Below, one piece after another: positions 14,970 to 20,370 of a DNA stretch of 64,000 bases. The stretch spans positions 3,104,001-3,168,000 of the forward strand of contig CAWCKH010000004.1 in NCBI GenBank assembly GCA_963796055.1, in the 5' to 3' direction. The position numbers and the translations under genes are program-made. Source of the stretch: an uncultured delta proteobacterium. Its GTDB lineage: Bacteria > Myxococcota > Myxococcia > Myxococcales > Myxococcaceae. Every line of letters begins with the position of its first letter. The stretch's first letter is position 1. Under the pieces are notes generated by a model. That model ran no database searches, was not told the origin of the DNA, and saw only the letters and a list, made by a program, of their open reading frames with translations.

Positions 14970-15051
14970 GCCCAGGTGGTGGAACTGGTAGACACACCAT
15001 CTTGAGGGGGTGGCGCCGAAAGGTGTGCGGGTTCGAATCCCGCCCTGGGCA
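14970..15051 (+). tRNA. tRNA-Leu(GAG), canonical class II; CCA not encoded
   Basis: GCCCAGG/CCTGGGC acceptor stem, CCATC-TTGAGGG-GGTGG anticodon arm, long variable arm, GCGGG-TTCGAAT-CCCGC T arm. Confidence 0.96.
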
Positions 15052-15054
15052 CTC

Positions 15055-15240
15055 TCAGTCCCTCGGAACTGCAGAGCAAATCTCGGAGCCGGTGGTCGAT
15101 TGACCCCTCGTTGACCCTGACTCCGAGCCCTCCGCGGTCCAGTGCTGATCCAGCGCCGCCACTGCCTCTCGCCGGCTGTCCGGAGACAGGTGCGAGTAGC
15201 GCGTCGTCATCTCGATGGTCGCGTGCCCGAGCAGCTCCTG
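15055..15240 (-). pseudogene. tyrosine integrase C-terminal remnant
   Basis: QELLGHATIEMTTRYSHL (box II His and catalytic Tyr), pointing toward tRNA-Leu; no N-terminal part. Confidence 0.8.
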
Positions 15241-15297
15241 TGGCTTAGGCATCGAACTCGCGGCCGCTACCATCCCTTCCTCTCCTCGTGGACCGTC

Positions 15298-15589
15298 ATG
15301 CTCTTCGCCGTGCTCTTCACCGACAAGACAGATCGTGCCGAACTCAGAGCCGAGCATTCTCGATGCGCACATTCGGTGGATAGCCGAGCACCAGGACCTC
15401 ATTCTCGTGGCTGGTTCGCTTCGTGCCGAGCCACAGGAAGTGCCCAAGGGAGGGCTTTGGATCGTCGAGGCAGAGTCAAAGGCTGCAGTGATGGAATTGA
15501 TGAAATCGAACCCGTTCTTCACCTGCGGCCTGCGCCAAAGCTTTGAAGTTCTGCACTGGAGCAAGCGCTTCAGGACCGAAAGGCTCTAG
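15298..15589 (+). pseudogene. YciI family protein with one +1 frameshift
   Basis: MLFAVLFTDKTDRAELRAEH continues as LDAHIRWIAEH..VAGSL..GGLWIVEAES..NPFF if one T of CATT (15355-15358) is removed, giving 96 aa. Confidence 0.75.
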
Positions 15590-15859
15590 TCTGATGCCGG
15601 GCTCGAGGAGCTTGCCGTGGAGCGAACGGACCCAACCTCCGAACAGCGCGGTGTTCAGGTCGTAGAGGCGCGCCCGACTGCCTTGCCTCTGGCTCGACGT
15701 GCTCCGGACCAACGCCGGTGCGCGCCGGTTCTACCATCTCCACGGGTTTCAGGTCCGGGCGGAGCTGCCGTTCTCCACGGATATCGCCTATCCGGGATTG
15801 CTGGTGATGGTCCGATAGCATCCGGGCAGGGGACGGGTGAGCTGAAGAGGAACCTCACT

Positions 15860-16012
15860 CGGCTCTCCGCTGACGCCGAGAGACGCATCGCCTCGCTGGT
15901 GCTGGGCAACCTGAACGAGGATGGCTACCTCAAGCTGCCTGACGTCGAGGGCGACTCGCTCATCCGTCGGGCCAGCAAGGCGGACGTGCCCATGCTGGTG
16001 GCCGAGCGGACC
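15860..16012 (+). pseudogene. rpoN: internal fragment of RNA polymerase sigma54 (core-binding region)
   Basis: DAERRIASLVLGNLNEDGYLKLPDVEGDSLIR...ADVPMLVAERT resembles the IGNLDDDGYL region of myxobacterial RpoN; only ~50 codons. Confidence 0.65.
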
Positions 16013-16093
16013 ACCATGGTTTCGACAACGACAATCACGCCTCGCTACGACAAGGCCGCGGCCCAGCTGGCGTGGCGGCACTTGGTTTCCTGG
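16012..16093 (+). pseudogene. dienelactone hydrolase C-terminal fragment
   Basis: HHGFDND(+1)ITPRYDKAAAQLAW matches the HGFxNDxTPRYDxAAAxLAW end of this family. Confidence 0.6.
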
Positions 16094-16155
16094 GCATTTC
16101 GCCACAGGGGCGGCCATTCCCCAGCGATTCTCATCGCCGAGCTCCCCACCCCGTC

Positions 16156-16184
16156 TTGACTCCACGTGGTGACGGGCGTACCTA
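16156..16184 (+). promoter_or_regulatory. possible sigma70-type promoter for leader plus tRNA array
   Basis: TTGACT-17 bp-TACCTA; good -35, weak -10. Confidence 0.3.
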
Positions 16185-16218
16185 CCTCACCGCAATCGAA
16201 GTCGGAGCAGCGCAGACG

Positions 16219-16389
16219 ATGAACACTCGAACCCAAGTGCTGGCAGTCGCCGCGGTGGTCAATGCCCACCGGCGGATCGGCTCGCGCTCGTGCGGGTGGG
16301 TGTCGTCCGCCGTGCCCTCGATCGAACTCGCACTGGCGATGAGCCAGCGCGGAGGCGATCGCGGCACACCCGACTTCATGCGTCGCTGA
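16219..16389 (+). CDS. putative leader peptide (56 aa) of the tRNA-array attenuator
   Basis: ATG preceded by GGAG; MNTRTQVLAVAAVVNAHRRIGSRSCGWVSSAVPSIELALAMSQRGGDRGTPDFMRR*; stop lies 24 nt before the terminator stem. Confidence 0.55.
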   Translation: MNTRTQVLAVAAVVNAHRRIGSRSCGWVSSAVPSIELALAMSQRGGDRGTPDFMRR

Positions 16390-16413
16390 TCCGGAACATC
16401 GGATCGGGGCTCA

Positions 16414-16454
16414 GGAGGCCGGGTGACCATCAGGGGTCCCCGGCCTTTTTCTTT
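16414..16454 (+). terminator. intrinsic terminator (attenuator 3:4 hairpin) directly upstream of the tRNA array
   Basis: GGAGGCCGGG(T)GACC-ATCAGG-GGTC-CCCGGCCTTT stem with a TTTTTCTTT tract (16446-16454). Confidence 0.85.
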
Positions 16455-16473
16455 CCTGGACACCCCACCGAAT

Positions 16474-16541
16474 AGGCCGCGCGCTGGGCGCAGGTGGGTC
16501 TCCAAAGCCTGCCGACGAGGGTTCGATTCCTTCACGGCCTG
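16474..16541 (+). tRNA. tRNA-Trp(CCA), atypical (short D arm, weak anticodon stem)
   Basis: AGGCCGC/ACGGCCT acceptor (1 mismatch), loop CTCCAAA, GAGGG-TTCGATT-CCTTC T arm, G73. Confidence 0.7.
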
Positions 16542-16582
16542 CACGCCCCCGTCCCTGCAGGGGCTCTGAAGCCTGACGGCGC

Positions 16583-16594
16583 TGTTCTGTGACA
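16583..16594 (+). promoter_or_regulatory. boxA-like antitermination element
   Basis: TGTTCTGTGACA resembles rrn boxA (TGCTCTTTAACA / TGTTCTTTGAAA); preceded by a GCCCC...GGGGC hairpin at ~16545-16564. Confidence 0.4.
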
Positions 16595-16660
16595 TCGAAC
16601 AATAGAAGCGACATTCGGGCTACCCGTCTGCCCTGGCTTGCTCCCCTCCATCCGCTCTGA

Positions 16661-16732
16661 TGGGGCGTCGTCTAGTCGGCAGGACCCTGGGCTCTGACCC
16701 CAGCGAGGGAGGTTCGACTCCTCCCGCCCCAG
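16661..16732 (+). tRNA. tRNA-Gln(CUG)
   Basis: TGGGGCG/CGCCCCA, CTGGG-CTCTGAC-CCCAG, GGAGG-TTCGACT-CCTCC; U1-A72 and G73 Gln identity. Confidence 0.92.
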
Positions 16733-16751
16733 CAATCTGAAGCAAAGTGAA

Positions 16752-16824
16752 GGCGCCGTCGGCCAGTGGTCAGGCCACCAGACTCTCGATCTGGGAACGG
16801 AGGGTTCGATTCCCCCCGGCGCTG
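16752..16824 (+). tRNA. tRNA-Glu(CUC)
   Basis: GGCGCCG/CGGCGCT, GGCC D stem, CCAGA-CTCTCGA-TCTGG, GAGGG-TTCGATT-CCCCC. Confidence 0.9.
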
Positions 16825-16829
16825 CTCAT

Positions 16830-16913
16830 GGCGGCCGACAATCAATGGCCGATCAGCGGGTTGTGACCCCGTGGGGCGAGAGCCCCGAAGGAGTTCGATT
16901 CTCCTCGACCGCC
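16830..16913 (+). tRNA. tRNA-His(GUG) with G-1:C73 and an abnormal long variable arm
   Basis: G-GCGGCCG/CGACCGC-C, GCGGG-TTGTGAC-CCCGT, extra arm GGGGC-GAGA-GCCCC, AGGAG-TTCGATT-CTCCT. Confidence 0.8.
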
Positions 16914-16918
16914 CTGAT

Positions 16919-16990
16919 GCCTCGTTGTCCCTCTGGTGAAGGTCTCCGGCTGTCTACCGGACGAGACGGGTTCGATTCCCGTACGGGGCG
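16919..16990 (+). tRNA. tRNA-Asp(GUC), U37
   Basis: GCCTCGT/ACGGGGC, TCCGG-CTGTCTA-CCGGA, ACGGG-TTCGATT-CCCGT, G73. Confidence 0.88.
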
Positions 16991-16992
16991 CT

Positions 16993-17064
16993 GGGCCGTG
17001 TGTCACTGGGGTGCAGCTCGGTCTCGCACACCGAGCGTGCCGGGTTCGATTCCCGGGCGGTCCA
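16993..17064 (+). tRNA. tRNA-Ala(CGC)
   Basis: GGGCCGT/GCGGTCC with G3:U70, CTCGGT-CTCGCAC-ACCGAG, CCGGG-TTCGATT-CCCGG, A73. Confidence 0.88.
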
Positions 17065-17083
17065 CACGTCGTTCTACGTTGCT

Positions 17084-17152
17084 GCCCCGTCCAGCGGATC
17101 TGGACCCCGCTCTCCGAAGGCGAGCGAGACCGTTCGACTCGGTCACGGGGTA
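17084..17152 (+). tRNA. tRNA-Arg(CCG), minimal D arm
   Basis: GCCCCGT/ACGGGGT, CCAG-CGGAT-CTGG, loop CTCCGAA, GACCG-TTCGACT-CGGTC. Confidence 0.8.
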
Positions 17153-17158
17153 CTGCCG

Positions 17159-17227
17159 GCCCCCATCGGTGGAACCGGACTCGCGGCTACGAACCGTGAT
17201 GAGAGCGTTCGATTCGTTCTGGGGGTG
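17159..17227 (+). tRNA. tRNA-Arg(ACG), minimal D arm
   Basis: GCCCCCA/TGGGGGT, CGGT-GGA-ACCG, TCGCGG-CTACGAA-CCGTGA, GAGCG-TTCGATT-CGTTC. Confidence 0.82.
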
Positions 17228-17232
17228 CTTCG

Positions 17233-17304
17233 CGTGGCGTCGCCAGGTGGGAAGGCAGCGGTCTCATGAACCGCCGATCGCAGGTTCGACTCCTGCCGCC
17301 ACGA
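17233..17304 (+). tRNA. tRNA-Met/Ile2(CAU), elongator type
   Basis: CGTGGCG/CGCCACG fully paired, GCGGT-CTCATGA-ACCGC, GCAGG-TTCGACT-CCTGC; lacks the initiator C1:A72 mismatch and GGG/CCC. Confidence 0.88.
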
Positions 17305-17307
17305 TAT

Positions 17308-17380
17308 GCCGGACAGTTCACCTGAAGGTGATGCCGCTCTCACACGGCGGAGGCGCAGGGTTTGATTCCCTGGTCCGGTA
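17308..17380 (+). tRNA. tRNA-Val(CAC), atypical D arm and T loop
   Basis: GCCGGAC/GTCCGGT, TCACC-TGAA-GGTGA, CCGCT-CTCACAC-GGCGG, CAGGG-TTTGATT-CCCTG, A73. Confidence 0.78.
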
Positions 17381-17387
17381 CATCAGA

Positions 17388-17461
17388 GCCGAGGTAGCCC
17401 AACCGGTAGAGGCACTGGTCTCAGACACCAGCAAGTGAGGGTTCGAATCCCTCTCTCGGTA
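17388..17461 (+). tRNA. tRNA-Leu(CAG) lacking the long variable arm
   Basis: GCCGAGG/TCTCGGT, CTGGT-CTCAGAC-ACCAG, 5-nt variable loop CAAGT, GAGGG-TTCGAAT-CCCTC, A73. Confidence 0.9.
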
Positions 17462-17526
17462 CAGCGGCCGGAAAGCCAGGTCCGTTGTCCAATCTTCCCT
17501 GGGGTCGAATCCTGTCCGACTCGCAC

Positions 17527-19812: not shown

Positions 19813-20370
19813 ATGAAGCGGTCGTTCGTTTCGGCGGTTCTGCTGCTCAGCTTGGTCCACGGCTCCACGGCACTCGCCGACGATTCCGGCCTGACCTTCG
19901 TCACCGTCGATGGAGTCCAGGGCGAATCCACGCGGACGGGGCACGAGGGCCAGATCGAGGCCTCGAACTTCTCCCAAACCTTTCGCCTGGCGGTGGCCAC
20001 GGGCGGAGCAGGCGGCGGCGTCGGCAAGCCGACCCTCGGTCCGGTGGTCTTCGAGAAGGCCCAGGGAGCGGCCAGCATCAAGCTCCTGAAGGCGCTGCTC
20101 TCCGGTCAGGCCATCGCGAAGGTGTTCGTCGACTTCTCCGCCCAGCAGCCCGATGGCAAGAGCGCTGTCACCTACAGGATCACGCTCCTGAACGTGATGG
20201 TCGTGGGCCTCAACGAGAAGAGCGTCGATGGCAGGCTCGTCGACGAGGTCCAGCTCACGTTCGAGTCCGGGATCTGGGAAGTCTTCGACCCGGCCGACTC
20301 GACGAGCTTCGACGGCAAGACCGGCAAGGTGAACGTGATCGCGCCTTCCGGCAGCCGCAGCACCCGGTGA
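19813..20370 (+). CDS. Hcp-like (T6SS tube fold) protein with N-terminal Sec signal peptide
   Basis: VDGVQGES..GHEGQIE, GGAGGGVGKP, FEKAQGAASIKLLKALLSG, YRITLLNVMV, DEVQLTF; MKRSFVSAVLLLSLVHGSTALA signal; GGAGG RBS. Confidence 0.8.
   Translation: MKRSFVSAVLLLSLVHGSTALADDSGLTFVTVDGVQGESTRTGHEGQIEASNFSQTFRLAVATGGAGGGVGKPTLGPVVFEKAQGAASIKLLKALLSGQAIAKVFVDFSAQQPDGKSAVTYRITLLNVMVVGLNEKSVDGRLVDEVQLTFESGIWEVFDPADSTSFDGKTGKVNVIAPSGSRSTR

Follow-up and report, generated by a model that had tools for sequence, protein, structure and literature searches.

A candidate ribosome-mediated attenuator in front of a tRNA gene array in the Myxococcaceae

Layout of the locus and its relatives

The window analysed here is a stretch of 64,000 nucleotides (nt) from contig CAWCKH010000004.1, assigned to an uncultured member of the Myxococcaceae. 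Positions 16156-16454 of its forward strand hold a short module, consisting of a promoter-like site, a Shine-Dalgarno (SD) region, a leader open reading frame (ORF; the leader ORF is called uORF below), a small hairpin and a GC-rich hairpin with a T-run, and an array of tRNA genes follows directly (Table 1). From the arrangement and conservation of these parts we consider it probable that the module is a ribosome-mediated transcription attenuator that gates the array behind it. An earlier note on this DNA had described the 56-codon uORF, its peptide with 18 of the 20 amino acids, its sole Trp codon (TGG, 16297-16299), the hairpin with its T-run and the tRNA array, and each of these was found where that note had put it. 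Lys and Tyr are the two amino acids absent from the peptide. The uORF is nested in a longer, GTG-started ORF (16072-16389).

Table 1. Features of the leader module, the tRNA array and the adjoining DNA (window coordinates)
Feature	Position	Strand	Details
tRNA-Leu(gag), context	14970-15052	+
Recombinase-like C-terminal fragment, context	15055-15564	-
Promoter-like site	16156-16184	+	TTGACT 16156-16161, 17-nt spacer, TACCTA 16179-16184
SD region	16198-16207	+	GGAG 16204-16207, 11 nt before ATG
Helix P1	16198-16205 with 16370-16377		GAAGTCGG with CCGACTTC; long-range helix, RNAalifold consensus
Leader ORF (uORF)	16219-16389	+	ATG 16219, TGA 16387-16389; 56 codons plus TGA
Switch segment (segment 2 of the earlier note)	16367-16377	+	CACCCGACTTC; pairs with 16198-16205 (P1) or 16414-16425
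Small hairpin	16388-16405	+	GATCCG / CGGATC; overlaps the stop codon
Putative terminator	16415-16454	+	Hairpin 16415-16447, outer stem GAGGCCGGG / CCCGGCC; T-run 16446-16454
tRNA array	16474-17462	+	ARAGORN and Rfam; Trp-like(cca), Gln(ctg), Glu(ctc), His-like, Asp(gtc), Ala(cgc), Arg(acg), Met(cat), Val(cac), Leu(cag)

The GC hairpin has a 13-pair stem, with a predicted energy of −26.0 kcal/mol when folded alone, and is followed by TTTTTCTTT (16446-16454), which ends 19 nt ahead of the Trp-like tRNA gene at 16474. With nine T in 12 nt, its tail is the most T-rich of the 47 modules scored. A simple terminator scan of the window gave one site, against 1.7 expected in shuffled sequences; it is therefore the conservation of the hairpin, and not the scan, that supports a terminator here. 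The region 16200-16470 folds better than its own shuffles (z = −3.47). A sigma-70 promoter scan of the window made no call at the TTGACT-N17-TACCTA site; the site suggests that the transcript would start near 16190-16192, about 28 nt ahead of the ATG.

A BLAST search over 363 genomes of the order recovered leader plus array in four genomes of another genus, and the exact hairpin pattern led to the same four genomes in the species collection and to nine metagenome contigs. In the resulting 13 full loci (82% mean column identity), TTGACT-N17/18-TACCT, the SD region, the ATG, the stop, both hairpins and the tRNA array behind them are kept, in the order promoter-like site, SD, ATG, uORF of 54-58 codons, small hairpin, GC hairpin, tRNA array. 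The first promoter hexamer and GTGACG..TACCT are invariant in all 13, as is the ATG, and the SD motif reads GGAG in 11 and GGAA in two. The conservation of the uORF upstream of homologous arrays, which the earlier note had proposed as a check, is evident: start and stop are identical in 12 of the 13 loci, and the remaining one (L036) carries a 1-nt insertion. The terminator stem is invariant in the four genomes found by BLAST, that is, independently of the hairpin pattern. The outer pair of the small hairpin is G-C in eight rows and A-U in four, and this includes the change of the stop codon from TGA to TAA. Similarity between the loci fades upstream of about 16085-16134.

The module is not confined to these close relatives. 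Of the family's 208 genomes, 112 contain the outer-stem pattern; when the pattern is reversed as a control, each genome yields 0-2 matches per strand. Thirty loci were fetched from roughly 400 matches, and in 27 of them a tRNA gene lies 23-50 nt downstream on the same strand. Fifteen loci were found through the Trp-like tRNA and not through the hairpin; 14 of these also bear the module, with a different gene order in the array and an analogous leader comprising the strong SD motif GAAAGGAGCGG, ATG, uORF, stop, hairpin and GC hairpin. The motif of these other groups, GAAAGGAGCGG-N-ATG, is kept with its ATG in groups whose leaders otherwise share little sequence. Across groups the outer stem of the GC hairpin is the same and the inner stem differs yet still pairs, and every other group has a hairpin of different sequence in the place of the small hairpin.

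In all, 52 modules were collected from Myxococcaceae; nothing claimed here depends on the unpublished genome G281. The uORF (20-62 codons) is intact in 51 of them, with its stop 24-40 nt ahead of the GC hairpin; only L036 is broken. Of the 52, 47 pass a rule that asks for an SD-preceded uORF, two of these (L055 and L065) being intact when read by eye, and the short uORFs of L072, L073, L075 and L076 (20-26 codons) were likewise read by eye. The 12-nt tails contain 4-9 T (mean 5.9), against a background T frequency of 0.17, and a good U-run directly after the stem is found in the window, in L025 and in three loci of genus g6. Among same-type loci the clean T-run is found in the window only.

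Several side observations concern these relatives. In the other groups (L016, L019, L024-L026 and L072-L076), TGTCAGG followed after about 17 nt by CGTC or CGTA lies roughly 60-90 nt before the uORFs, which we take to be similar to promoters of extracytoplasmic function (ECF)-type sigma factors; the window's group has the TTGACT-N17-TACCTA site instead. In a 105-nt contig from a soil metagenome, the hairpin and the first part of the Trp-like tRNA are unchanged, the spacer between them (window positions 16447-16468) differs at eight places, and the tail is of the TCTCG type seen in the relatives. Of the 20 sequencing runs listed for the window, none has half of its words; the four that were compared with it consist of metagenome contigs, and the one RNA run matches only parts of tRNAs, at less than 95% likeness. 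A wider BLAST over 401 genomes of the phylum returned only the same three g44 genomes and one 36-nt match, at L053 1353-1389 (genome G204), which is 92% identical to window 16346-16381 and lies antisense inside a 520-residue ORF with no tRNA nearby. A protein comparison with that ORF gave no real similarity; the match may be a trace of the leader's origin, or chance. A phage origin of the module was considered and rejected because the hairpin pattern had 0 matches in viral contigs.

A maintained frame, a free peptide and a matching composition

Within the uORF, gap runs between related leaders are multiples of three in 8/8 cases (3, 36, 48, 3, 6, 24, 6 and 6 nt), against 4/27 outside it, when L036, L055, L065, the g6 loci and singletons are left aside. 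The window's own group contributes two of the runs inside the uORF, of 6 nt each. The peptide itself seems free to change. In the window's group (12 rows, without L036 and the duplicate row G259_C7) the ratio of non-synonymous to synonymous changes (dN/dS) is 0.60-1.96, and the variable columns are spread over the codon positions as 29/36/29 of 54. Five further groups give pooled dN/dS values of 0.72-1.87, with variable columns flat over codon positions. An open frame alone proves nothing, since other frames are open too (frame +3 is stop-free in 12 of 14 rows). With dN/dS near 1, it is therefore the frame that is kept and not the peptide. Indirectly, this suggests that the leader frame is maintained by selection although the peptide is free, and that the uORF is probably translated.

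The uORF was also considered as a conserved small protein, and this candidate was dropped: it has no Pfam family. A search of 1.84 billion protein representatives returned the uORF itself, three true relatives and two repetitive proteins, the latter taken as spurious. The three relatives are metagenomic proteins that align with the uORF from end to end at 58-65% identity, with an identical C-terminus position. No paralogues of the leader were found within its own genome.

Where arrays are small, the peptide's composition follows the array. This was examined in 28 distinct pairs of leader and array, restricted to complete arrays of at most seven tRNAs, from eight groups. With one representative per group (n = 8), the match averages 0.329, a value that is not attained in any of 14,833 derangements (maximum 0.268). 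The excess is present in all eight groups, from +0.001 (E) and +0.011 (D) to +0.34 (g6). In the g6 leaders with short uORFs, the amino acids of the own array make up 0.40-0.60 of the peptide, against 0.12-0.22 for the same sets of amino acids in uORFs of other groups; the four peptides are rich in His, Phe and Arg (for example HFHHFFRR) and stand ahead of His-Phe-Arg(-Leu) arrays. Codons readable by the three to six tRNAs behind number 7/20, 7/19, 8/22 and 14/25, and in L075, Trp, Tyr and Asp are added in both uORF and array. Leaders of group B, rich in Leu, Asp, Gly and Glu, precede Glu-Asp-Gly-Leu-Leu arrays (own-array amino acids 0.29-0.54 vs 0.15-0.20). As a single case, the group E locus L078, whose array is one tRNA-Tyr, has Tyr at two Phe/His codons of its relatives (L016-L023), and three Tyr codons in all, when most relatives have one and two have none.

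The window leader has no codon run, and 20 of its 55 codons are readable by the tRNAs of the array behind. With 18 amino acids and no run, it would sense general translation trouble and not a shortage of Trp. The earlier note had given the Trp codon a special role on the grounds that segment 1 overlaps it and that the first array gene is tRNA-Trp. We abandoned Trp-specific sensing: the single Trp codon sits in a helix that is itself conserved, and most uORFs of group B do without Trp. The feedback logic of the same note gains comparative support from the match between leader and array in small arrays; its 1:2 pairing and the link to Trp do not.

Folding of the leader and a possible switch

An RNAalifold consensus of the 13 leaders has a long-range helix, P1, in which GAAGTCGG, including half of the SD motif, pairs with CCGACTTC near the end of the uORF. 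P1 encloses two sub-domains, and the small hairpin and the GC hairpin come after it. In 12 distinct rows 99% of its cells are paired, and six of its eight pairs never vary. The consensus as a whole is 97.2% paired and has ten pairs changed on both sides. Its covariation score of 0.183, obtained on the alignment from which the structure was derived, compares with 0.120 for shuffled alignments (0/500 reach it) and at most 0.062 when the structure is slid along the alignment. In every group, the SD region has a downstream pairing partner in the consensus fold.

The 3' strand of P1 falls within the switch segment, CACCCGACTTC, which is nearly invariant in same-type loci and has an alternative partner in 16414-16425, the 5' arm of the terminator. 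The pairings proposed in the earlier note are all complementary in the window sequence, and they fare differently in the relatives. Its 1:2 set, in which segment 2 pairs with a part of the uORF, is paired in 70.4% of cells (63.9% for the main helix, GGGTGT/ACACCC), and 485 of 500 shuffles reach its covariation score. We dropped this pairing for want of conservation; what segment 2 pairs with consistently across the relatives is the SD region. The 2:3 pairing, the putative antiterminator, is kept, with 94.2% of cells able to pair. In 23 of 45 leaders the best partner of the hairpin's 5' arm lies at the uORF end, and, with the exception of one group, a CCCG box resembling the hairpin's 3' arm sits at the uORF end, 9-18 nt ahead of the stop. 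Its first base falls on codon position 1 in most groups, but on position 3 in most of group A; since its codon phase differs between groups, it appears to be conserved as RNA and not as peptide. Covariation of the box with the variable base after CCGGG in the arm, judged by eye, was inconsistent, and we make no claim of it.

The helix energies are −9.2 kcal/mol for P1, −11.8 kcal/mol for the antiterminator and −26.0 kcal/mol for the terminator. These energies are similar to those of the E. coli trp leader. P1 plus terminator is the minimum free energy structure in nine of the 13 sequences. Folding was repeated with assumed ribosome footprints of 31 nt, for the nascent leader up to 16428 and for the full leader; with this footprint, a ribosome at the stop codon would cover 16369-16399. 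In the nascent RNA, the antiterminator has a predicted probability of 0.47 when no ribosome is present; a ribosome at the stop brings it to 0, an occupied SD or a ribosome near codon 43 raises it to 0.99-1.0, and a stall on the Trp codon alone gives 0.53. Masking of ribosome footprints, a check proposed in the earlier note, thus brings out the antiterminator in folds of the nascent RNA, and not in those of the full leader, as described below.

Transposing the scheme of a ribosome-mediated attenuator to this leader, we propose the following mechanism. Its observed basis is the anatomy, the conservation, the maintained frame and the composition match; that the leader is translated, that transcription ends at the hairpin and that there is a switch at all is inferred. 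Transcription would begin about 28 nt ahead of the ATG, and a ribosome would load at the SD motif and translate the 56-codon leader. A ribosome reaching the stop codon would sit over 16367-16377, leaving the GC hairpin and its U-run to form, and transcription would end before the first tRNA. If no ribosome were loaded, the switch segment would pair with the SD region to form P1, and the terminator would again form. With slow or stalled ribosomes in the leader and the following ribosome already on the SD, the switch segment would be free as the 5' arm of the hairpin emerges. It would then pair with this arm, and RNA polymerase would read into the array.

More tentatively, each spare tRNA array of the Myxococcaceae may be wired to a leader peptide that samples the codons its tRNAs read, making a cis-acting loop of supply and demand. 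In such a loop, the loss of those tRNAs, be it to starvation or to anticodon nucleases that stem from competitors, phages or defence systems, might directly switch on replacements, and large arrays such as that of the window might carry a generalist leader that reports the overall speed of translation.

A number of findings weigh against an attenuator and have to be set beside it. At equilibrium the antiterminator state is 13-17 kcal/mol worse than the alternative in 12 of the 13 sequences and about 7 kcal/mol worse in one, and in the full leader the terminator has a probability of about 1.0 in every masked state; any switch must therefore be kinetic. The antiterminator is without covariation, because both of its strands are invariant, and its duplex (mean −19.4 kcal/mol) is barely better than with reversed (−18.4 kcal/mol) or shuffled (−17.1 kcal/mol) arms. 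For groups A and B, the segment that pairs best with the arm is found 35-45 nt ahead of the stop, and groups D and E show almost no excess in composition. The spacing of 11 nt between SD and ATG in the window is rather long, and two of the four short g6 uORFs have no SD-like motif. Most relatives have a TCTCGC.TTT tail with 4-7 T in 12 nt and the run displaced by 4-6 nt, so the strong, off-by-default terminator suggested in the earlier note does not describe the family. The window's own copy may be in decay, having lost about half of the tRNAs of its relatives and the HNH gene. Finally, the loci are related by descent, by which the counts given above overstate their independence, and loci found with the hairpin pattern have the stem by construction.

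The same findings leave room for other explanations. One is a leader that acts as a structured cis-regulatory RNA without being translated, either in the manner of a riboswitch or by binding a protein or tRNA; P1 would then close a sensor domain of about 180 nt, its formation deciding between antiterminator and terminator, and the open frame would be incidental. The well-paired, covarying consensus agrees with this, as do the dN/dS near 1 and the openness of frame +3, and the pairing of the SD and start region in every group's consensus, a further point against translation, fits it as well. We nevertheless think it unlikely. The multiples of three among gap runs inside the uORF are left without a reason, as are the retention of SD plus ATG in leaders of divergent sequence and the way leader amino acids track the array; moreover, the leader has no Rfam match, and the structure was scored on its own source alignment.

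Equally improbable, in our view, is the absence of any regulated switch, with a small gene or relic ended by an ordinary terminator and a window array that is a silent, decaying passenger of an island. The window does look the part: it has 8-10 tRNA-like genes where relatives have 15-22, several with poor tRNA scores, the HNH gene is gone, its T-run is the strongest of the modules scored, and it lies in a lower-GC stretch beside a recombinase-like fragment. A relic does not explain why the order and spacing of uORF, hairpin and tRNA are kept in 51 of 52 modules from many genera, nor why the window leader is intact and close to that of relatives with full arrays, and the 23-50 nt between hairpin and tRNA leave no room for a separate promoter. 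Least likely of all is a GC hairpin that, instead of being a terminator, serves RNA processing or stabilisation at the head of the tRNA precursor, or is a palindrome to which a protein binds, with the uORF in another role: the outer stem is indeed invariant and palindromic, many sites match it on both strands, most relatives have an interrupted U-run, and in the consensus fold the T-rich tail pairs with purines ahead of the hairpin (helix 10), but the tails are far richer in T than the background, the inner stem changes between groups and still pairs, as would be expected of an RNA element and not of a DNA operator, and the fixed distance to the uORF stop and the arm-like box would be left unexplained.

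Comparison with known systems and setting of the array

Leader-peptide attenuation is the textbook bacterial way of matching amino-acid synthesis to demand. With the attenuators of amino-acid operons (trp, his, phe, leu, thr, ilv) the module shares a promoter-proximal short ORF with a ribosome-binding site, which lies at the 5' end of the transcript if the start is placed correctly; a stop positioned such that a terminating ribosome would cover the 5' strand of the putative antiterminator; and, next, a terminator-like hairpin with a U-rich tail, in the window a probable intrinsic terminator between leader and genes. The runs of cognate codons typical of those operons are matched in the relatives with small arrays, not in the window. 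The targets differ, being tRNAs here and biosynthetic enzymes there, and the leader is long (54-58 codons; 20-62 in the family), with the SD region as segment 1. In the literature searched, also for tRNA arrays of Myxococcus, no description of leader-peptide or attenuation control of tRNA genes was found.

Two leaders that sense translation stress offer further parallels. For the whiB7 uORF of mycobacteria, stalling is believed to cause antitermination, and the uORF sequence is reported to vary between species with its composition bias kept, the coding sequence deciding which starvation is sensed (PMC10274678). As here, with a dN/dS of about 1, the peptide would be free while its composition follows the target; the whiB7 target is a transcription factor and the bias is for alanine, whereas the present leaders would control tRNA genes and have a bias that differs from array to array. 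The bmrB-bmrCD system of Bacillus subtilis is reported to have a small leader ORF and alternative stem-loops, and translation of the ORF is needed for induction by antibiotics that act on protein synthesis (PMC4191407). It may serve as a model for a general sensor of translation stress such as the window leader would be, although, unlike here, its target is a drug-efflux transporter and the terminator lies inside the leader ORF.

T-boxes, which regulate aminoacyl-tRNA synthetase and amino-acid genes, need no translation. Like the leader proposed here, they couple tRNA status to antitermination in cis. Neither a T-box nor any other Rfam leader family was matched on 16150-16470 (E up to 1) or in L042, L043 and L046 (E up to 5).

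L-arrays are supernumerary, horizontally spread tRNA arrays with an HNH neighbour, and are reported to be induced by translational stress through promoter repeats (PMC8421152). In Anabaena, the control is by a repressor, TrcR, acting on direct repeats at the promoter (PMC8421152, PMC10272220). The strings 'attenuat', 'leader' and 'terminator' do not occur in the text of PMC8421152. The window array resembles this class in its many clustered, supernumerary and horizontally acquired tRNAs, with 8-10 tRNA-like genes. The HNH linkage is shared with relatives of the window array (7/7) and not with the window itself, where the nearest HNH homologue (65.6% identity) is about 440 kb away.

If confirmed, the module would bring textbook attenuation to tRNA genes. 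A shortage in decoding would then feed back directly on the supply of tRNA, and widespread and poorly understood spare tRNA arrays would gain a clear regulatory logic, different from the repressor control of cyanobacteria while answering the same stress. The leaders would then be natural, tunable sensors of codon-specific or general translation stress.

In the array itself (16474-17462), the default threshold of ARAGORN yields eight tRNAs; a ninth, Val(cac) at 17308-17381, is called only when the threshold is lowered. Rfam adds a His-like gene at 16830-16913 that ARAGORN leaves uncalled in the window, and scores several members poorly. The genome has 59 tRNA genes, and the anticodons of all eight default calls are present elsewhere too. 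Homologous arrays have 15-22 tRNAs (15-17 in the four genomes of another genus). The window array is shortened against L032, L041 and L048 (compared over 16552-17016); genes for Thr, Lys, Gly, Gln(ttg), Asn, Cys, Pro, Ile and Phe are gone. A BLAST search of the 12 other genomes of the genus did not recover the array.

Some of the array members have unusual forms. The Trp-like tRNA (16474-16542), which is not reached by the Rfam tRNA model, combines a D stem of three pairs and a 4-nt loop with an anticodon at position 29. The odd form is kept in L018, L024, L025 and others, across arrays from several genera, so a local defect is not the explanation. The His(gtg)-like gene (16830-16913) has a long variable arm, and ARAGORN calls an 84-nt counterpart in relatives. 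Leu(cag) (17388-17462) is 75 nt long in the window and 89 nt in three g44 relatives, and seems to be without the long variable arm typical of Leu tRNAs.

In a genome of about 70% GC, the GC content drops around the array by about eight points, from 0.71-0.75 to 0.59-0.67. The lower-GC stretch starts right after tRNA-Leu(gag) and contains the module. Between the two lie a fragment that, by a motif, may be the C-terminus of a recombinase and has no Pfam match, and a YCII-domain ORF (15215-15589). The recombinase-like fragment matches a locus adjoining another tRNA gene of the same genome. A further 58-residue fragment (about 15872-16045) is 68-69% identical to two other loci of that genome. The motif of one fragment may resemble sigma-54. 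Taken together, 14970-16150 looks like a patchwork island. A search for an att-type direct repeat of the tRNA-Leu 3' end found only T-arm similarity to the last array tRNA.

In the related loci examined (L033, L034, L035, L032, L044, L046 and L047), the HNH endonuclease gene lies directly behind the array on the same strand in all seven, and in five loci a divergently transcribed SPFH/Band_7 gene lies upstream. The window array adjoins neither gene; the homologues are 440 and 310 kb away, respectively. About 2.3 kb past the array there is an ORF (19813-20370) with an Hcp (type VI secretion) domain (Pfam E = 5e-21).

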